A stretch of DNA of 64,000 bases from Candidatus Magasanikbacteria bacterium RIFCSPHIGHO2_01_FULL_33_34 (GTDB lineage Bacteria; Patescibacteriota; Patescibacteriia; Magasanikbacterales; UBA922), in the NCBI GenBank assembly GCA_001782825.1, contig MFPS01000008.1, positions 73,012 to 137,011 on the forward strand, written 5' to 3'. The notes beneath the pieces are model-generated. The model searched no databases and was not told the DNA's origin. It saw nothing but the letters and a program-made list of their open reading frames with translations. Position 1 is the first letter of the stretch. Every line of letters starts with the position of its first letter. Shown here piece after piece: positions 8,807-61,719 of this stretch. The position numbers and the translations under genes are program-made.

Positions 8807-8984
8807 ATTTATATATAGTTTTTTCGTTTAATAAAAATTTATTTAGTAGATAATATCATCTCATATTTTTATGATTTTGTCAATGTTATGTGAATAAAAT
8901 TGATGTAGGATACTTGAAATTTTTATTGTTTTGAGGTATATTTCTTAGGTTACTAAAATACAAAAAGGAAGGAAGGTCTTTTAT

Positions 8985-9129
8985 ATGGACACCATTGTAC
9001 TGATTGTACTGATCTTGTTTTTGGTTAGTTCTTTGGTATATTTGGTTTTTTCAATTGAAAATGACGTTAAAAAAATAGAATTGGAGGTTGGAAAAAAACA
9101 TCGTAAATTGAGTAGTGTCGAGAATGACT
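8985..9129 (+). CDS. Small single-TM peptide (48 aa), member 1 of a four-copy sORF cluster
   Basis: MDTIVLIVLILFLVSSLVYLVFSIENDVKKIELEVGKKHRKLSSVEND. AAGGAAGG Shine-Dalgarno 9 nt upstream. Not in the ORF track (shorter than 60 aa). Confidence 0.35.
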
Positions 9130-9291
9130 AAAGCTTTATCCTTTTAATGTAAGTAATGTGAAGGTCACCAATTGATATTGGTGGCCTGCTGTATTTTAGA
9201 AGCCTTTTTGTATACTTGCCATTTTTTAAATTTAGTGTTATGTTTTAGTAGTTTTACTTGAGGTATTTTTACATATTGAGGAGGGTGATGT

Positions 9292-9408
9292 ATGCCACAA
9301 GCATTTTGGGCTATTTTATTGGGTGTGTTTATTATCGTTTATTGGGGTATTTTGATATATATATGTGAACGTGATAAAGGAGATACTCAAATTAAGTTTG
9401 ATTATTGA
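9292..9408 (+). CDS. Small single-TM peptide (38 aa), paralogue of the 9922 sORF
   Basis: MPQAFWAILLGVFIIVYWGILIYICERDKGDTQIKFDY. GAGGAGGG Shine-Dalgarno 7 nt upstream. Shares the V-F-x-I/V-x-W-G-I-x-x-Y-x-x-E-R-D/N-K pattern with sORF3. Confidence 0.4.
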   Translation: MPQAFWAILLGVFIIVYWGILIYICERDKGDTQIKFDY

Positions 9409-9446
9409 GAAATTGTGTTCTTTGACAATGACGAAAGGCGTGGAAA

Positions 9447-9899: not shown

Positions 9900-9921
9900 T
9901 TCTTCAAGGAGGAGGGATTGT

Positions 9922-10017
9922 ATGTTGAAAACTGTTTGTTGCGTTATTGCCATGGTGGTAATAGGAGTTTTTTGGGGTATTGGTGTTTACAAGCGTGAAC
10001 GTAATAAAACAAGGTAA
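9922..10017 (+). CDS. Small single-TM peptide (31 aa), paralogue of the 9292 sORF
   Basis: MLKTVCCVIAMVVIGVFWGIGVYKRERNKTR. Strong Shine-Dalgarno AAGGAGGAGGG 6 nt upstream. Confidence 0.4.
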   Translation: MLKTVCCVIAMVVIGVFWGIGVYKRERNKTR

Positions 10018-10028
10018 TTCAAACTAAT

Positions 10029-10175
10029 ATGGACATCACAAAGGTTTTGTTAGTAATATTTGCTATTGTGATGTTTGTTGGAGTAATTCTACACTTGATT
10101 AATTTCTGTAATCGTGAAAAATATATCAAAAAAATCCGTGATGATATGAAGAAGGCTGGTGAAAAGAAAGAATAA
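10029..10175 (+). CDS. Small single-TM peptide (48 aa) with a C-x-RE-K juxtamembrane motif and a basic tail
   Basis: MDITKVLLVIFAIVMFVGVILHLINFCNREKYIKKIRDDMKKAGEKKE. The ATG is 11 nt after the stop of sORF3. Confidence 0.35.
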   Translation: MDITKVLLVIFAIVMFVGVILHLINFCNREKYIKKIRDDMKKAGEKKE

Positions 10176-10430
10176 ATTTGATTGATTTGTTTTGCCTGTT
10201 CAGTTTTTGTAAAGTTCAACAAAATTATTGCCCAAGATGAGGGTTGTCAAGTGAAACAACAAGGCCATCAGCTAATGCTGGTGGCTTCTGTATTTGTGGT
10301 GTATTGCTAAGGACATATATGACAAAAACACCAAGAGTATAAAGATTATATTTAGGTTCTATAAATTGAAATGGTTGAATATCAAAAAATAATTTTTATT
10401 GTAAAACTATTGTAGCTATAGTTATTTTTG

Positions 10431-10986
10431 TGGCTCGGCGAGTGGGATTCGAACCCACGACCAATTGGTTACACGTAATCCCTAGTTTTCACTAGCGCGT
10501 GGACTATATCATCACCCTCGCCAATATCCCAAAAGGAAATTTTGAGAAAACCTGCCCATATATGACAGGACGTTAGGGTGCGAAGCGCTTCCTATCCCTG
10601 TTAATTTTGAATTAACTAGGACAGTACTCCCGTACAAAGGCCATTCACTCTTTTAGAAAGAATTCAGGCAGGGATAGTCTCTGAACCTTCACAATATATA
10701 TTTATCACGTTTATCATCTTCTAACCTTTCAATAAAGGAATTATTAGCATGGTAAGTCGTGCAGAATAAATAAATTATTGTGCTTGGCTGCAGGTTACCA
10801 TAATCTTATTATAGATGTTAGGGTCCCTGTTTTTTACAATGTACACTGTAAAAATTTTCATCTTGCGATGAAACAATTCACTTCGTTTTCACCTCGATGT
10901 TTCTATCAAGGGCTGCAAATACAATTTTGATAAATCAAAATTGGCACTAGTCACAGCCAACTGCTCTACCACTGAGCTACCGCCGA
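10431..10986 (-). tRNA. tRNA-Asn(GUU) gene interrupted in the anticodon loop by a group I intron. Exon 1 is about 10953-10986 and exon 2 is 10431-10471; CCA is encoded.
   Basis: On the minus strand exon 1 reads UCGGCGGUAGCUCAGUGGUAGAGCAGUUGGCUGU. Exon 2 reads UAACCAAUUGGUCGUGGGUUCGAAUCCCACUCGCCGAGCCA. Joined, they give a canonical cloverleaf: acceptor UCGGCGG/UCGCCGA, D-arm GCUC/GAGC, anticodon stem GUUGG/CCAAU with loop CUGUUAA, T-arm GUGGG-UUCGAAU-CCCAC, and G73. U1-A72 plus G73 plus loop CUGUUAA matches tRNA-Asn. The junction is uncertain by about 2 nt; a Thr(UGU) reading is the alternative. Confidence 0.75.
10472..10952 (-). other. Group I self-splicing intron (about 481 nt, no ORF) within the tRNA-Asn anticodon loop
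   Basis: The minus-strand intron contains the conserved R element GGUUCAGAGACUAUC and S element GAUGAUAUAGUCCAC, which form the P7 core. A candidate P1 pairs the exon end GGCUGU with intron GCAGCC, placing U-G at the 5' splice site. The intron ends in G before the 3' exon. Confidence 0.75.
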
Positions 10987-11067
10987 ATATTAAATTTTAC
11001 TCTGATTGTGATTTTCATAATCAGAGGCAATTTAACATTTTTATTATTGTATATTTTTTATGGCCAT

Positions 11068-11096
11068 ATTTTAACAAGATTATGTGATATTGTCAA
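11068..11096 (-). promoter_or_regulatory. Putative promoter for the tRNA-Asn gene (TTGACA, 17 bp, TAAAAT on the minus strand)
   Basis: Reverse complement is TTGACAatatcacataatcttgtTAAAAT. It ends about 75 nt upstream of the tRNA 5' end. Confidence 0.35.
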
Positions 11097-11151
11097 TTGT
11101 TTATAAATAGTCCTTTATAAAGGACTATTTATAATTATATGTCGTATTTGT

Positions 11152-12885: not shown

Positions 12886-12965
12886 ATAAATTATATTATA
12901 GCATATTGTTTATTTGTAAACAATCAAAAATAAGATTAAATTAGAGTAGTTTTAATGGTTAAAAG

Positions 12966-13004
12966 TAAAAAAAGACCAGCTAATAAATTAGCCAGTCTTT
13001 TTTT
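12966..13004. terminator. Bidirectional terminator downstream of cspA
   Basis: aaaaaaa-GACCAGCTAAT-aa-ATTAGCCAGTC-ttttttt. Confidence 0.5.
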
Positions 13005-13019
13005 AATTTGTCTATTTGA

Positions 13020-13220
13020 TTAGACGCGTCTTACGTTTACCGCATTTAGGCCTTTTGGACCTTCTTCTACGTCAAACTCTAGTGTATCACCTTCGCGTAA
13101 ATCGTTGTATTCAACGTCAACAAGGTTGTTAGTGTGGAAAAATAAATCTTTTTCCTCACCTTCGCGAGAAATGAAGCCAAACCCCTTATCAGTAAGTCTA
13201 GCAATTGTTCCTTTTTGCAT
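13020..13220 (-). CDS. cspA: Cold-shock protein (CspA family, S1-like cold-shock domain)
   Basis: 66 aa. MQKGTIARLTDKGFGFISREGEEKDLFFHTNNL with RNP1-like KGFGFI and RNP2-like LFFH motifs. Confidence 0.9.
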   Translation of the reverse strand: MQKGTIARLTDKGFGFISREGEEKDLFFHTNNLVDVEYNDLREGDTLEFDVEEGPKGLNAVNVRRV

Positions 13221-13301
13221 GTAGTAACAATAAATGAATTAAATTTCAAATAAAGATTAAAAGAAAAATGTTCATTTCTCTATACCTCTTTTGATGGCAA
13301 T

Positions 13302-13330
13302 AGTATATCATATATTGATAGTTTTGTCAA
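13302..13330 (-). promoter_or_regulatory. Putative cspA promoter (TTGACA, 17 bp, TATACT) with a roughly 75-nt 5' UTR
   Basis: Reverse complement is TTGACAaaactatcaatatatgaTATACT. A long leader is typical for csp genes. Confidence 0.45.
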
Positions 13331-13423
13331 TAGCTAGCTATATTGGTAGTAATAATTTGTTATTTTACTTGATATGGCTGTGTTCTCATTATATAATAGT
13401 TCAGTTAATCCATAATTGATAAT

Positions 13424-17260: not shown

Positions 17261-17293
17261 TAGTGTAGGTAAAGTTAAATAAATAATAAAATT

Positions 17294-17326
17294 AAAAAAC
17301 CTAGTCATTTTGACTAGGTTTTTTAA
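17294..17326. terminator. Bidirectional terminator (after the SWIB gene on plus and the 260-aa gene on minus)
   Basis: aaaaaAACCTAGTCA-ttt-TGACTAGGTTtttt. Confidence 0.6.
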
Positions 17327-17328
17327 TT

Positions 17329-18111
17329 TTAGATATTTTTTCTTATTATATTATCTACTGCTGCCCAAGAATTTGGTATATCCTTAGCTACAATAAAAAT
17401 GACTTCGTCTCCTGGTTTGCCTTTGTAGAATGTAACAGAAGCAGTGAGTATCATATATTTGTTATTATTTTCAGTTACACACCATTGTTCATTGTTTGGG
17501 TCTTTTGTTAGTATACCGATTTTTCTGATTCTTTCGATTGGTTTGACTTGTTTGTATATGAATTTTCCATTTTCTAAAATTGTAAGTTTCAGTTCATCTC
17601 CCTCTACAAGTTTTGATTTGCTGGCATAATTTGGTGGTATAGAGTATTCTTTGTTGTTTTTGTCAATCATTTTTATTCCATCAAAAATACCATTGATAAT
17701 TCTATCATCACTTTGGATTATTTTTTGATTAGGTGGATTAATCTCTTTGGTTGTTTTTATGTTTAAAATTATTTCATTGCCTTCAATTATTCTAATAATT
17801 GCATCAAGTTGGTCTTTGATTGAATATATTTTTGATTTTAATTTTTCAAGATCAATTGGGATATTTTCTGTGTTTGATTGTGTTTGAGTGCTTTTTTCTG
17901 AAGGTTTTTCATCAGCAACTATTTTATCAATAATTATTTCATTTTTATTTTCTTTTTGATCATAATTTTCTTCTATTTCATTATAATCCTCTAAATCAAG
18001 CTGATTATCTATTTTGTCATCTGATGTGGTCGAGTGGTTGATGGGGGAAAGGGTTTGAGTTGGAAATATTTCGTCGGCTTTGTTGTTTATTAGATCTGTT
18101 ATTGAATCCAT
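17329..18111 (-). CDS. Hypothetical protein: acidic low-complexity N-terminal half and a beta-rich C-terminal domain. Last gene of the three-gene operon with the T4SS-type ATPase.
   Basis: 260 aa. No TM and no recognised motif. Directly downstream, 38 nt, of the ATPase gene on the same strand. Confidence 0.5.
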   Translation of the reverse strand: MDSITDLINNKADEIFPTQTLSPINHSTTSDDKIDNQLDLEDYNEIEENYDQKENKNEIIIDKIVADEKPSEKSTQTQSNTENIPIDLEKLKSKIYSIKDQLDAIIRIIEGNEIILNIKTTKEINPPNQKIIQSDDRIINGIFDGIKMIDKNNKEYSIPPNYASKSKLVEGDELKLTILENGKFIYKQVKPIERIRKIGILTKDPNNEQWCVTENNNKYMILTASVTFYKGKPGDEVIFIVAKDIPNSWAAVDNIIRKNI

Positions 18112-46287: not shown

Positions 46288-46863
46288 ATGAGTATGAATA
46301 AAGTTTTTATGGGGAAAATAAGAAAAGAGTTACATTCTTATCAATTAAAAAGAAGAGAGATAATTCGTGAATCAGGCGATGCTCTCCATTATGCTAAGCG
46401 AGCAATTTTTTCTATGCATCGTGATGATATGAATGAGGCTGAAACAAAAATAAAAGAAGCTGAAGCAATATTTAAAAAATTAAATATAAAGTTTAAAACT
46501 GATAAGAAGATTCTGTATGAAGGTTCGTATAAAGCGGCGGTAGAGGAATATGTTGAAGCTTCTATTTTTTATCAATTTATTACAACTGGAAAAATTAGTA
46601 ATATAAAGAGTTTTGCAATTGATTCGGATATTTATTTGGCTGGTCTTTGTGATGTGCCAGGAGAGCTTTATCGCTATGCTATCAAGTCTGCTACTGAGAG
46701 GAATGACGAGATGGTAAAGAAGTGTTCCAAAATGGCATCAGATATAATCGGTGAATTGATTGAGTTTGATTTGACTAGTTATTTGCGTACTAAATTTGAT
46801 CAAGCAAAACAAGCCAATCAAAAATTGGAACATGTTGTTTATGAAGTGTCGCTTATAAAGTAA
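46288..46863 (+). CDS. Translin-family protein (bacterial translin-like nucleic-acid-binding protein)
   Basis: 191 aa, all-helical. Pattern ...YKAAVEEYVEASIFYQFITTGKI...DIYLAGLCDVPGELYRYAI... matches the translin domain consensus as I recall it. Confidence 0.6.
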   Translation: MSMNKVFMGKIRKELHSYQLKRREIIRESGDALHYAKRAIFSMHRDDMNEAETKIKEAEAIFKKLNIKFKTDKKILYEGSYKAAVEEYVEASIFYQFITTGKISNIKSFAIDSDIYLAGLCDVPGELYRYAIKSATERNDEMVKKCSKMASDIIGELIEFDLTSYLRTKFDQAKQANQKLEHVVYEVSLIK

Positions 46864-46892
46864 GATATAAGTTCTATATTTTCAATCATGAC

Positions 46893-46997
46893 AGTATTAG
46901 TTTAAATTATTTATTTTTACTCATTCTCGCCTCGGCTCCGAGGGTGATGTCTGTGGAAACATCAAATCCGTAAAAACAAATAATTTAAACTAATACT
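46893..46997. repeat. Structured intergenic repeat, copy A: 28-bp AT-rich inverted arms enclosing a GC-rich core with two hairpins (CCTCGG-CT-CCGAGG and GATGT-N9-ACATC)
   Basis: Arms AGTATTAGTTTAAATTATTTATTTTTAC and GTAAAAACAAATAATTTAAACTAATACT pair at 27 of 28 positions. The core ATTCTCGCCTCGGCTCCGAGGGTGATGTCTGTGGAAACATCAAATCCG is shared with copy B. Confidence 0.6.
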
Positions 46998-47035
46998 TAA
47001 TTATAAATAACATTTCCAATTTTATAAAAAAGTTT

Positions 47036-48343
47036 ATGAATATAAAAGGAAAAGCTAAAAAAATTATACCAAAGAGCCTATTAAATTTGCGTCATTTGTT
47101 TTATGCATGGCTGGGTTCGGTTATTTATAGATGGCCGTCAAATAAAATTTATGTGATTGGGGTAACTGGAACTAGTGGTAAATCAACTACAGTATATTTG
47201 TTGCGTCAGCTTTTGGAGAGTGTGGGATACAAAGTAGGCGCATTGTCTACTATAGAATTTTGTGTAGCCGGAAAATGTAAATTGAATGATAAAAAAATGA
47301 CAATGCTAGGAAAAATGGCTATTCAAAAATATTTGAGGAAAATGGTTGATAATGATTGTAAAATTGCCATTATAGAGACTACCTCTGAGGGGCGTATACA
47401 ACATCGTCATCGTTTTATAAATTATGACACGATTGCGCTTACCAATCTTTATCCAGAGCATATTGAATCACATGGTAGTTTTGACAACTACAAAAAAGCT
47501 AAACTTGATATTTTTGAGTATGTTTCTAAATGTAAAAAGAAAAATATAAGTCTAGTGGAAAATGATAATAAATTTGAAAAAATTTCTATCCTCAATGCTG
47601 AAATTGAACATAAAAAGGAATTTTTGAAATTTGATTTTGATAAAAAAATGACTTTTGGTCACGGTGGTGAATTTGTTCCAGTGAATATAAATATTGGAAA
47701 AGATGGTTTGAGTTTTGCTATTGGTGAACACAAATTTAAAGCACCATTATTTGGTGAATATAATGTTATGAATATTTCGGCTGTGGTTACAATTGCTAGA
47801 AGCTTAGGTATAGATTGGAATATTATTACAAAAGCAGTTTCCAATTTTAGAGGAGTACCAGGTAGAATAGAATTTATTTCTGAGGCAGAAAAAGAGCATA
47901 ATTTTCAAGTAATAGTTGATTATGCCTTTGAGCCAGTAGCTATGGCAGAATTGTACAAAGTTGTAAAAATTTTACAACCAAAAAGAATTATTCATGTATT
48001 TGGCTCTACTGGCGGTGGTAGGGATACAGATAGACGAGAGAAGCTGGGGGATTTTATTGGAAAAAATGCTGACATTTGTATTGTGACAGATGAAGATCCA
48101 TATGATGATAATCCACAGGATATAATAAACGAGGTGGCAGAAGCAGTAGAAAAAACTGGCAAAAAAGAGAATGAAACTTATTTTAAAATAATTGATAGAG
48201 GTGAAGCAATAGATAAAGCAATAAAATTGGCACAAGCAGGGGATTTGGTATTGGTGACTGGTAAAGGTTCTGAGCAAGCTATGGTTGTCAAAGGGAAATT
48301 AGTGCCTTGGGATGATAGGGAGGCTGTTCGAAATGTTTTATGA
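47036..48343 (+). CDS. Mur ligase family protein (MurE-like central and C-terminal domains; short N-terminus lacking a typical UDP-MurNAc-binding domain)
   Basis: 435 aa. GVTGTSGKSTT, a Mg-binding region (TNLYPEHIESHGSFDNYKKAKLDIF), GVPGRIEF, and FGSTGGGRDTDRRE. Confidence 0.75.
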   Translation: MNIKGKAKKIIPKSLLNLRHLFYAWLGSVIYRWPSNKIYVIGVTGTSGKSTTVYLLRQLLESVGYKVGALSTIEFCVAGKCKLNDKKMTMLGKMAIQKYLRKMVDNDCKIAIIETTSEGRIQHRHRFINYDTIALTNLYPEHIESHGSFDNYKKAKLDIFEYVSKCKKKNISLVENDNKFEKISILNAEIEHKKEFLKFDFDKKMTFGHGGEFVPVNINIGKDGLSFAIGEHKFKAPLFGEYNVMNISAVVTIARSLGIDWNIITKAVSNFRGVPGRIEFISEAEKEHNFQVIVDYAFEPVAMAELYKVVKILQPKRIIHVFGSTGGGRDTDRREKLGDFIGKNADICIVTDEDPYDDNPQDIINEVAEAVEKTGKKENETYFKIIDRGEAIDKAIKLAQAGDLVLVTGKGSEQAMVVKGKLVPWDDREAVRNVL

Positions 48344-48389
48344 TATTAGATTAAGATATAATAGTATTGTTTATGCTTTAATCTATGAT

Positions 48390-48509
48390 TGTATTAGTTT
48401 TAATTATTTGTTTTTACTCCCTGCCTGCCGGCAGGCAGGATTCTCGCTTTGGCTCCGAGGTGATTGCCTGTTGTGGCAATCAAATCCGTAAAAAATATAA
48501 TTATTAGAT
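48390..48509. repeat. Structured intergenic repeat, copy B: related to copy A, with an extra 20-bp perfect palindrome (CCTGCCTGCC|GGCAGGCAGG) and a degenerate right arm
   Basis: Core ATTCTCGCTTTGGCTCCGAGGTGATTGCCTGTTGTGGCAATCAAATCCG. The second hairpin is GATTGCC-N6-GGCAATC, a compensatory change relative to copy A. Confidence 0.6.
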
Positions 48510-48548
48510 TTTTATAAGATTATAAACAATTTTAGTAAATTTATAAAT

Positions 48549-52867: not shown

Positions 52868-52950
52868 AGCAGAATAGGCAGAGTAAGCGGATTAAGCAAG
52901 GTAAGTATTTACTTATTTTGTCTATTCTGCTTACTCTGCTTAATTTGCCA
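52868..52950. repeat. Phased 9-10-bp repeats (AGCAGAATAG|GCAGAGTAAG|CGGATTAAG|CAAGGTAAG) followed by their inverted copies (TCTATTCTG|CTTACTCTG|CTTAAT), forming a long imperfect hairpin downstream of ftsX
   Basis: Seen directly. The 12-mer GGCAGAGTAAGC recurs at 63469-63480, and related units occur at 63728-63770. Confidence 0.45.
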
Positions 52951-61173: not shown

Positions 61174-61217
61174 AGTTAGTTCTTAAACGCCCACTATCTT
61201 TTAAATAGTGGGTTTTT
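61141..61217 (+). terminator. Compound terminator: a 10-bp-stem hairpin GGGCGTTTAA...TTAAACGCCC overlapping CCCACTAT...ATAGTGGG plus T5
   Basis: Seen directly after the 60754-61173 ORF. Confidence 0.5.
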
Positions 61218-61236
61218 AATTATATAAGTATAAAAT

Positions 61237-61719
61237 ATGAAAAATAAAAAATTAATTTATGGATTTGTTGCAATAGTTATTCTGGTTGGTGGTTTGGTAA
61301 TAAAATCAAATATAAAATCTAATGTAGATTTGACAGATTCTGATCAATTAAAAGATAAATTGGTATTGTATCGATCACCTAATTGTGGTTGCTGTGTTAA
61401 TTATGCAGCTTATTTAAAAAAAGAAGGTTATGAAGTTGAAATCATATCAACTGATGATATGAACACTGTGAAGGAGGAAAAAAGAGTTCCTTTTAACATG
61501 TCTAGTTGTCATACTGTAGTAATGGGAGATTATGTAATTGAAGGTCATATTCCTGTAGAAGGTATAAAAAAATTAGCTAGTGAGAGACCAAATATTGTTG
61601 GTATAACTCTTCCGGATATGCCACAAGGTTCACCAGGAATGCCAGGAAGAAAAGTTGGTTTGTTTGATATTTATTCTATAGAAAATGATGGTAATACTTC
61701 ATTATTTACTCAACTTTAA
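61237..61719 (+). CDS. DUF411-family (CopG-like) periplasmic metal-binding protein
   Basis: 160 aa. N-terminal TM/signal. SPNCGCCVNY and DMPQGSPGMPG are hallmark DUF411 motifs. Confidence 0.7.
   Translation: MKNKKLIYGFVAIVILVGGLVIKSNIKSNVDLTDSDQLKDKLVLYRSPNCGCCVNYAAYLKKEGYEVEIISTDDMNTVKEEKRVPFNMSSCHTVVMGDYVIEGHIPVEGIKKLASERPNIVGITLPDMPQGSPGMPGRKVGLFDIYSIENDGNTSLFTQL

Follow-up and report, generated by a model that had tools for sequence, protein, structure and literature searches.

Paired palindromic repeats beside a murE-type gene in a Magasanikbacteria operon: a possible lineage-specific insertion

In a cell-wall and division operon of an uncultivated Magasanikbacteria lineage, two copies (A and B) of a hairpin-forming element flank a Mur ligase gene. 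What is this element, and does it make a mobile cassette of the gene that it surrounds? The original prediction considered a REP/MITE-like repeat, a 3′-UTR stabiliser or terminator, a small RNA (sRNA), and a recombination site. Analysis of the window, that is, the whole 64-kb stretch of DNA, and of related loci suggests that the element is an ordinary insertion repeat, small and palindromic, rather than a gene-cassette boundary; of the roles that had been offered, a REP/MITE-like repeat fits best.

Architecture and folding of the two copies

The two copies (Table 1) measure 105 bp (A) and 126 bp (B) and have in common a left arm and a GC-rich core which are found nowhere else in the window. 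The core, ATTCTCGC-NNN-GGCTCCGAGG, occurs exactly twice in the 64 kb with up to three mismatches allowed (shuffled sequences give an expectation of 0.00), and the 27-nt arm occurs three times, as the left arm of A, as its right arm in reverse complement, and as the left arm of B (0.00 expected). The repeat pair is thus borne out at the positions where it had been proposed, with 0 expected by chance. The closing stem of copy A is paired at 27 of 28 positions on the + strand, in agreement with the original prediction, and no other inverted repeat of the window is as long. The A/T-rich inverted arms of about 28 bp, which had been attributed to both copies, are therefore real in A but not in B, whose right arm barely exceeds chance: against shuffles, the comparison of A with B scores z 9.2 for the left arm, z 11.1 for the core, and z 1.9 for the right arm.

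Table 1. Features of the two intergenic regions, in window positions
Feature	Position	Strand	Remarks
Translin-to-murE intergenic region, 172 nt	46864–47035	+	Homologous junctions of relatives 9 and 5 nt
Copy A, complete element	46893–46997	+	28-bp A/T-rich closing stem enclosing two-hairpin core; covariance model R1, 125 bits
Copy A left arm, GTATTAGTTTAAATTATTTATTTTTAC	46894–46920	+	
Copy A hairpin 1, CCUCG-GCUC-CGAGG	46930–46943	+	Strong, −7.5 kcal/mol including flanking bases
Copy A hairpin 2, GAUGU-CUGUGGAA-ACAUC	46946–46963	+	Weak, −2.5 kcal/mol
Copy A right arm	46970–46996	+	Reverse complement of left arm with one difference (A-C on +, G-U on −)
murE-type Mur ligase, 435 aa	47036–48343	+	Core gene between the copies, outside the element
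murE-to-hyp215/216 intergenic region, 205 nt	48344–48548	+	Homologous junction 1 nt in L068, 6 nt in L180
Copy B	48390–48515	+	Left arm, extra palindrome, core, decayed right arm; model R1, 132 bits
Copy B left arm	48391–48417	+	25/27 identical to A left arm; 96% complementary to A right arm
Perfect GC-rich palindrome, 20 bp, CCTGCCTGCCGGCAGGCAGG	48420–48439	+	Copy B only, exactly between arm and core
Copy B hairpin 1, CUUUG-GCUC-CGAGG	48447–48460	+	Two G-U pairs, −3.6 kcal/mol; broken on − strand
Copy B hairpin 2, GAUUGCC-UGUUGU-GGCAAUC	48462–48481	+	Strong, −9.9 kcal/mol
Copy B degenerate right arm	48488–48515	+	Conserved: inner GTAAAAA only

Identity between the copies is uneven. The junction strands ATTCTCGC and ATCAAATCCGTAAAAA are the same in A and B at 24 of 24 positions (8/8 and 16/16), whereas the stems, the loops, and the right arm differ. 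The additional 20-bp palindrome that had been noticed in copy B is indeed there and is unique; it was either inserted into B or deleted from A. The right arm of A and the left arm of B form 27-bp inverted repeats around murE. Copy A contains no ORF of at least 20 aa, and copy B only short chance ORFs. Beyond the arms, a weak similarity of A and B continues through the full length of the two intergenic regions (z 3.0 upstream, z 2.2 downstream); in the flanks it is marginal and concerns A/T-rich sequence next to a stop or a start codon.

Both intergenic regions open with a conserved −10-like box, TAAGATATAA. On the + strand, −10-like boxes lie at homologous positions at the 5′ edge (TATAAG and TATAAT), and on the − strand TTTATA-17-TATAAT is found at 47028–47000 and 48547–48519. 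Promoter-like matches in the region number 18, versus 18.6 expected from shuffles. The terminator scan calls no intrinsic terminator in either element.

The RNA fold of copy A reaches −36.8 kcal/mol (z −7.2) on the + strand and −42.8 kcal/mol (z −8.2) on the − strand, and that of copy B −42.1 kcal/mol (z −4.35) on the + strand. The predicted fold of B closes with a different, shifted 16-bp A-U stem, in which 48380–48395 pairs with 48494–48510. If the DNA is transcribed, the predicted double-stranded stem would consist of 20 + 7 bp with one mismatch in A and of the shifted ~16 bp in B. The hairpin 2 difference (GAUGU/ACAUC in A versus GAUUGCC/GGCAAUC in B) is as had been described and amounts to one true compensatory pair (U-A versus C-G) and one paired indel. 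Hairpin 1 differs by two one-sided C-to-U changes from A to B, and these leave G-U pairs in B, so that the wobble pairing that had been claimed is present. The further step from such covariation to selection on structure is not supported, since the comparison comprises two sequences (n = 2), simulated neutral divergence of equal size leaves at least five pairs in 22–28% of trials for each hairpin, and the strand signals conflict: hairpin 1 of B pairs on the + strand only, whereas the arm mismatch of A is A-C on the + strand and G-U on the − strand. The element as a structured RNA is not proven. In A as in B, a strong hairpin is accompanied by a weak one (Table 1), and this pattern, together with the conflicting strand signals, fits independent, neutral decay. 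Elsewhere in the same window, a long hairpin at 52869–52948 is clearly specific to the sense strand.

Gene order and junctions in related loci

The host operon consists of the genes for a P-type ATPase, translin, murE, hyp215/216, ftsB/DivIC, and ppiC, and both copies precede cell-envelope genes. The Mur ligase is called UDP-N-acetylmuramyl-tripeptide synthetase by those sources that name it, and it has homologues of 57–76% identity in Magasanikbacteria and in related CPR assemblies. The order ATPase-translin-murE-hyp215/216-ftsB-ppiC is kept in six other Magasanikbacteria loci, always without the element. The operon is tightly packed in the two closest relatives found, both with identical gene order: in L068 (76% MurE identity) the translin-murE junction is 9 nt and the murE-hyp215/216 junction 1 nt, and in L069 (73% MurE identity) the translin-murE junction is 5 nt. 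The present lineage carries extra DNA of ~155–200 bases at the two neighbouring junctions, homologous between them. The elements are thus the variable part of the locus, because the closest loci have 5–9 nt and 1 nt at these junctions. The idea that murE is bracketed like a cassette, and might be variably present between the copies, is contradicted by the same comparison: murE and translin occupy the same place in all six relatives, and murE here is a fixed core gene and no cassette, which corrects a tempting misreading of its position. Since even the nearest relative stands far off (76% MurE identity), the choice between insertion in this lineage and loss in the others is settled by parsimony only.

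At least 10 assemblies of the same population carry A and B in identical form, which indicates no recent activity; these contigs (L058–L067) are all at least 99.98% identical and are consequently uninformative on polymorphism. Other relatives carry inserts at these junctions that are unrelated to the element, namely a ~140-nt hairpin built of repeats, tandem repeats, an Avd-like gene, and a canonical terminator; the junctions therefore tolerate and collect insertions. The other cell-wall genes of the window, ftsW and murG, have junctions of 5–6 nt from which the element is absent.

Searches for further copies and comparison with known families

A third copy was not found in ~83 kb of the genome (~7% of ~1.17 Mb), comprising the 64-kb window and ~19 kb of additional flanking sequence. 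An nhmmer profile of both intergenic regions likewise gave none in the window, the loci of the six relatives, and the ~19 kb of flanking genome. The covariance-model search that the original prediction had proposed (model R1) returned A and B only in the window, its other matches being A/T-rich terminator hairpins of at most 24 bits; a 22.5-bit match at 999–1109 folds no better than shuffles. No further match to the arms (GTATTAGTTT...) that could mark an IS with matching ends was seen in the window. In a large genome collection, the pattern TTCTCGCNNNGGCTCCGAGG gave 57 matches, all of them 20–25-nt chance matches in unrelated, mostly GC-rich genomes, and did not return the organism itself; by our own estimate, a pattern with 17 specified bases should meet ~69 chance matches in 596 Gb when two strands are counted. 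A metagenome collection scanned with ATTCTCGC..TGAT..ATCAAATCCG yielded 37 matches, all unrelated and devoid of the arms and hairpins of the element. These results did not include the copies of the window itself, so the metagenome scan is silent on other copies in this genome, and neither collection seems to include the host organism. Among viral contigs, two of three scans were empty, and a 16-mer gave 70 chance matches. Six-frame peptides of both cores, which would have revealed further copies annotated as spurious ORFs, matched nothing among 5.8 billion predicted proteins at E up to 10. No homologue of the element was found in the other genomes, metagenomes, and viral contigs searched.

Rfam at gathering thresholds detected five tRNAs only in the whole window, and a search of both intergenic regions at a permissive E-value gave, at best, generic long-hairpin miRNA models (31 and 26 bits versus gathering thresholds of 100 and 80). 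The repeated, hairpin-forming intergenic element that had been announced is supported; it is non-coding and of no described family. A hammerhead-like three-way junction, considered by eye, was rejected since it agrees neither with the lengths of the junctions nor with the CUGAUGA/GAAA motifs, and a tRNA-like origin of ATCAAATCC was supported by neither ARAGORN nor Rfam.

The element resembles prokaryotic MITEs in being non-coding and small (105 and 126 bp, within a range of about 50–500 bp), in the terminal inverted repeats of copy A (copy B has an intact left and a degenerate right arm), and in the empty orthologous sites of L068 and L069, distant as these are (73–76% MurE identity). It departs from them in that no more than two copies were found in the ~83 kb searched, with no parent IS in the window, and in that the core is more conserved than one arm. 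It also lacks a target-site duplication: direct repeats beside copy A do not exceed 2 nt for any boundary placed within 4 nt of the inverted-repeat ends, and copy B has chance-level 4-mers only. No transposase or integrase is encoded among the ORFs of the window.

Correia elements (CREE or nemis) of Neisseria occur in 100–250 dispersed copies, and their target sequence is duplicated. They measure 104–108 or 153–157 bp, have inverted repeats of ~26 bp, and are RNase III substrates when transcribed (PMC2649163; PMC10969869). The element shares with them the size class, terminal inverted repeats of about that length around a conserved core, and a non-coding, intergenic location often 5′ of genes. 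A near-perfect stem of at least ~20 bp, as in CREE-like RNase III substrates, is present in copy A, and the predicted stem of B has ~16 bp. Unlike CREE, it occurs as two adjacent copies in a CPR host, with no target-site duplication and no sequence similarity to CREE, and is a putative RNase III substrate. The ERIC/IRU and REP/BIME repeats of enterobacteria are multi-copy and conserved across genera, both influence mRNA stability from transcribed intergenic regions of operons, and REPs depend on a RAYT transposase. The element is like these families in being an imperfect palindrome in the intergenic regions of an operon, but displays no sequence similarity to them, with two copies in the ~83 kb searched and no transposase in the window. 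ERIC/IRU lie in transcribed intergenic regions of operons, where they affect mRNA stability (PMC10969869). With integron attC sites the element has in common an imperfect palindrome of ~60–140 bp located 3′ of a gene and in its orientation, whereas the core motifs GTTRRRY and RYYYAAC have zero matches in either intergenic region, as the original prediction had already remarked, and the genes beside the element belong to the core and keep their synteny. The intrinsic terminators of the same genome (for example, 17287–17331 and 1663–1714) are also hairpins 3′ of a gene, but they are short stems between A- and T-tracts; the element has a branched interior of 39–68 nt and no T-run.

Origin and possible role of the element

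The two copies are tentatively regarded, with somewhat less than even confidence, as paralogous copies of a small palindromic insertion, non-coding and confined to this lineage, at two adjacent intercistronic junctions. The architecture is MITE/Correia-like, with ~27-bp A/T-rich terminal inverted repeats and a GC-rich core of two to three hairpins. After a first insertion, the second copy would have arisen through a local hop, at short range, or through ectopic copying, and both copies would now be inactive and decaying, B by loss of the right arm and weakening of hairpin 1, A by weakening of hairpin 2 and lack of the 20-bp palindrome. The element is probably co-transcribed, since it lies inside a string of co-oriented genes without a canonical terminator. 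Its transcript would fold into a stem of ~28 bp, long enough for an RNase III substrate, and stable GC hairpins. The present function of the element, if any, would most likely be an incidental influence on how intercistronic mRNA is processed or how stable it is, as in Correia and ERIC repeats. Against an insertion stand the count of two copies, only 1.4 kb apart, in the ~83 kb searched, the missing target-site duplication at copy A, the lack of a transposase or integrase in the window and of homologues in the other genomes, metagenomes, and viral contigs searched, and the uneven identity (24/24 in the junction strands), which would also be expected of a constrained RNA. If this reading is true, the locus shows on a small scale how palindromic repeats colonise the intercistronic spacers, the few tolerated spots of a streamlined CPR genome; a literature search for MITE-like repeats in CPR bacteria found almost nothing.

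The most credible rival, although unlikely, is a selected cis-acting RNA structure needed at both sites, either as an intercistronic processing or stability element or as a 5′ leader for murE and for hyp215/216-ftsB-ppiC, its stem being cut by RNase III or its core sensing a signal. The invariant junction strands beside differing stems that still pair would be accounted for, as would the compensatory pair and the paired indel of hairpin 2, the G-U changes of hairpin 1 that pair on the sense strand only, and the closing stem that B retains in a different register. The cell-envelope genes that follow both copies and the −10-like box that starts both intergenic regions point the same way, and the sense-specific hairpin elsewhere in the window implies that RNA-level hairpins at gene ends exist in this genome. 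However, the element is absent from the six related loci, where the genes abut directly or have unrelated inserts, and from the short ftsW and murG junctions; two sequences are compared, each hairpin survives in 22–28% of neutral simulations, the arm mismatch of A favours the antisense strand, and Rfam is negative.

It is more doubtful that the copies arose by a local, non-transpositional duplication, in which a module made of a structured 3′ end and the start region of the next gene arose once and then reached the adjacent junction through ectopic recombination, gene conversion, or replication slippage, with no part for a mobile element. Two copies only, from a recent local duplication, had been named as the outcome that would refute the original prediction, and the searches, which gave no third copy, are compatible with it. 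The limitation to two adjacent copies, the weak similarity across whole intergenic regions, the absence of both a target-site duplication and a transposase, and an uneven identity which could reflect conversion tracts are in its favour. On the other side, the flank similarity is marginal in A/T-rich sequence beside stop and start codons, and the terminal inverted repeats of copy A are typical of transposable repeats. Moreover, we know of no simple mechanism that would place a 150–200-nt block precisely into a 1–9-nt spacer 1.4 kb away without duplicating the intervening gene, here murE.

A CPR-lineage intercistronic RNA module of the cell-wall and division operon is improbable. In such a module RNase III would cut the 28-bp stem and uncouple translin, murE, and ftsB-ppiC, freeing a GC-rich RNA of ~50–70 nt with two or three hairpins, whose invariant junction strands (AUUCUCGC, AUCAAAUCCG) would bind a protein, a ligand, or a target RNA. 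If true, envelope synthesis in this bacterium of reduced genome would have a hitherto undescribed regulatory RNA. About as improbable is an independent sRNA gene in each copy, on either strand and with its own promoter, the GC-rich core being the functional sRNA: the folds are very stable and −10-like boxes lie at homologous positions on both strands, but promoter-like matches stay at the shuffle level, no terminator is present, relatives lack the element, and neither strand is consistently favoured. Recombination sites, attC-like or similar, that would make murE a mobile cassette are close to refuted, because the imperfect palindromes 3′ of two co-oriented genes and the inverted repeats around murE are set against missing attC motifs, no integrase in 64 kb, and a core peptidoglycan gene that stays in place, together with translin, in six relatives lacking the element.

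The comparison across the seven Magasanikbacteria loci is the more useful result. Almost every lineage has a different lineage-specific insert, which marks the two junctions as hot spots for gaining structured DNA or RNA.

The repeat in the window

At copies A and B, the hairpin-forming element on either side of murE, the sequence matches its earlier description. With up to 3 mismatches allowed, the 64-kb window holds exactly two matches to the core ATTCTCGC-NNN-GGCTCCGAGG (0.00 in shuffles), and there are three instances of the 27-nt arm GTATTAGTTTWAATTATTTRTTTTTAC (A-left, B-left and, on the opposite strand, A-right; expected 0.00). The alignment of copy A with copy B has a mean column identity of 81%, and the two whole intergenic regions are 78% identical. 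Against shuffles, the similarity is unambiguous in the left arm (z 9.2) and the core (z 11.1) and marginal in the upstream (z 3.0) and downstream (z 2.2) flanks.

In the fold of copy A (-36.8 kcal/mol, z -7.2), two hairpins are enclosed by a 20+7-bp stem that has a single mismatch; this stem is the longest inverted repeat of the window. The inverted arms described originally are retained for copy A but not for copy B, whose right arm is near chance level (z 1.9 vs shuffles) and whose fold (-42.1 kcal/mol, z -4.35) is predicted to be closed by a different stem. The perfect palindrome ascribed to copy B is indeed present, unique in the window and located exactly between arm and core. No ORF of at least 20 aa is found in copy A.

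Both intergenic regions open with an identical 10-mer holding a -10-like TATAAG or TATAAT box and lacking a persuasive -35. The inserted unit may have brought it along as a promoter, or it may have arisen by chance in A/T-rich DNA. In both copies, a second CUCG could pair with CGAG of the hairpin 1 3' strand and replace the CCUCG/CUUUG strand, a possible alternative pairing.

Coordinates of the features discussed
Sequence	Position	Feature
window	46288-46863	translin-family gene (PF01997)
window	46861-46871; 48352-48362	shared 10-mer TAAGATATAA
window	46893-46997	copy A
window	46923-46943; 48440-48460	strand just 5' of hairpin 1 with second CUCG (AUUCUCGC)
window	48380-48395 with 48494-48510	predicted shifted A-U closing stem, copy B
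window	48390-48515	copy B
window	48420-48439	20-bp perfect palindrome, copy B
window	52869-52948	38-bp hairpin between ftsX stop codon (52864) and tRNA-Gln (52956)
window	8807-9446; 9900-11151; 12886-13423; 61174-61684	stretches (510-1250 nt) without ORF of at least 70 aa or Rfam match
L069; L178	4801-5157; 5457-5813	Avd-like gene (PF05635 23S_rRNA_IVP / PF22296 bAvd)
L178	3828-3972	hairpin at translin-to-murE junction
L070; L178; L179; L180	6408-6548; 5814-5861; 5333-5427; 3888-4000	short degenerate tandem repeats

The window and ~19 kb more of the same genome, taken from both window ends, hold two copies and no third. The 57 matches of a genome-collection scan were due to chance, and the 37 of a metagenome scan were unrelated sequences. 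Because the window's own copies were missing from the results of both large scans, the source organism appears to lie outside those collections, and the negatives cover other organisms only. Viral contigs contained no copy, and six-frame peptides of both cores had no match among 5.8 billion predicted proteins. In ten contigs of the same population, at least 99.98% identical, the elements are invariant.

The murE junctions in related loci

The Mur ligase between the copies is a murE-type core gene, named UDP-N-acetylmuramyl-tripeptide synthetase in the sources that give a name. Homologues in Magasanikbacteria and in related assemblies of CPR share 57-76% identity with it, and none was found in the interval from 76% to 100%. 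Six related loci share the order ATPase-translin-murE-(Avd)-hyp216-DivIC-PpiC, where hyp216 encodes a hypothetical protein; in none of them was the element picked up by sequence profile or by a covariance model built from copies A and B. It follows that murE is fixed and that the variation lies in what is inserted at the junctions, so the idea of murE as a bracketed cassette is abandoned. By parsimony, the window's two elements would be lineage-specific insertions of ~155-200 nt into spacers that span just a few bases in the closest two relatives found. The junction 3' of murE seems to be a hot spot for insertions.

Spacers around murE in six related Magasanikbacteria loci
Locus	MurE identity	Translin to murE	murE to next gene
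L068	76%	9 nt	1 nt
L069	73%	5 nt	23 nt (Avd-like)
L180	67%	113 nt, canonical terminator and short repeats	6 nt
L178	66%	186 nt, unrelated ~140-nt hairpin	25 nt (Avd-like)
L179	68%	~490 nt, including 90-aa ORF	95 nt
L070	67%	two reverse-strand genes	141 nt, tandem repeats

The L178 hairpin is made of ATTCGAAA-like repeats (-42.5 kcal/mol, z -6.0), and the tandem repeats filling homologous junctions have the units AATTCACCT..., TCTTACATCTTA..., CTTAAGTCTTA... and CTAAATTCTATATT... The Avd-like gene directly follows murE in L069 and L178 and, in L178, is followed by hyp216, with no adjoining reverse transcriptase. The translin family is best known from eukaryotes. Its gene lies 1-62 nt downstream of a P-type ATPase gene in 6 of the 7 Magasanikbacteria loci compared (an ATPase gene is missing from L070); all seven have it upstream of murE, and in five it is the direct neighbour.

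Hairpin changes between the copies

Covariation between the copies, originally taken to indicate selected structure, is a weak sign of it, because neutral change preserves pairing in roughly a quarter of trials and the strand signals conflict. With the amount of change set to that observed between the copies, hairpin 1 kept at least 5 pairs in 22% of simulated trials, and hairpin 2 did so in 24-28%. In hairpin 1, the copies are set apart by two C-to-U changes, giving G-U pairs in B. In hairpin 2, with stems aligned base to base, a single pair is truly compensatory (U-A in A, C-G in B); B also has an extra U-A, the one paired indel, and a one-sided change that makes its stem longer. The stabilities are reciprocal, hairpin 1 reaching -7.5 kcal/mol in A and -3.6 in B, and hairpin 2 -2.5 and -9.9. 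A B-like hairpin 2 decayed to A-like stability in 28% of trials, the opposite occurring in 0.06%. Taken together, these rates and the reciprocal stabilities fit independent decay of both copies from an ancestor whose two hairpins were strong.

Copy B hairpin 1 pairs on the + strand only, because its changes are A-C on the - strand; the sole arm mismatch of copy A is A-C on + and G-U on -. Overall, the - strand gives the more stable fold for copy A (-42.8 vs -36.8 kcal/mol on +) and the + strand for copy B (-42.1 vs -36.9 on -). The copies agree at 24 of 24 positions in the junction strands, ATTCTCGC and ATCAAATCCGTAAAAA; stems, loops and right arm differ. These strands are the one feature that does look constrained. 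Their invariance and the retention of the hairpins speak for a selected cis-acting RNA element, a reading that has some appeal and is rather unlikely.

Origin, possible role and setting

The two inserts are homologous, missing from relatives, non-coding and outside known RNA families, and copy A has terminal inverted repeats. As the likeliest of the readings, the element is tentatively regarded as a small non-coding palindromic insertion of MITE/Correia-like architecture. Correia/CREE, ERIC and REP-type intergenic palindromes are closest in architecture and likely behaviour, but the element is unrelated to them in sequence and is not a demonstrated member of any. Neither a target-site duplication nor a parent IS was found in the window, which, along with no more than two copies in the ~83 kb of this genome covered, weighs against calling it a MITE in the strict sense. 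That an intergenic module was duplicated without transposition is unlikely. As a palindromic insertion, the element would represent a known kind of small intergenic repeat, here in a CPR genome.

Such an insertion would have been mobile, reaching two adjacent intercistronic junctions via a local hop or ectopic copying, and both copies would now be decaying. It would be co-transcribed with the operon, and the 28-bp dsRNA stem predicted in the transcript may be cleavable by RNase III. Correia and ERIC elements offer a precedent for an effect on the stability of flanking cistrons (PMC2649163; PMC10969869), and by analogy RNase III cutting would modulate the stability of those next to the element. 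A putative RNase III-released regulatory RNA module serving envelope genes is improbable. Independent sRNA genes are about as improbable; promoter-like hexamers around the elements are no commoner than in shuffles, and neither element has an intrinsic terminator match. Sites resembling attC are effectively refuted, as the core motifs are absent, the window has no integrase and synteny is conserved.

The source population, Candidatus Magasanikbacteria (CPR) of the Rifle aquifer, has a GC content of ~31%. Locally, a run of genes all on the + strand encodes, in order, a P-type ATPase, the translin-family protein, Mur ligase, a 215-aa protein without Pfam match, DivIC/FtsB, PpiC, an ABC ATPase and FtsX, with copy A lying before and copy B after the Mur ligase gene. 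The remaining genes are housekeeping, including GreA, a DNA polymerase III clamp-loader subunit, CysRS, type IV pilus genes, LigA, GatCA, Lgt, L27, FtsW, MurG, an RND pump and metal-resistance genes; transposase and reverse transcriptase are likewise absent from the 64-kb window. The window has many intergenic regions of 100-290 nt, so the length of the element-bearing spacers alone is not unusual; the ftsW-murG junctions measure 5-6 nt and lack the element.

Among the unusually long stretches without larger ORFs, one annotation calls several 31-48-aa ORFs within 9900-11151 and 8807-9446. The hairpin after ftsX has arms of degenerate 9-nt repeats (GCAGAATAG GCAGAGTAA GCGGATTAA ...). Its fold reaches -45.8 kcal/mol (z -11.3) on the + strand and, because many pairs are G-U, is weaker on the - strand (-31.8, z -6.2); the hairpin therefore probably acts as a structure of the RNA, on the ftsX sense strand.
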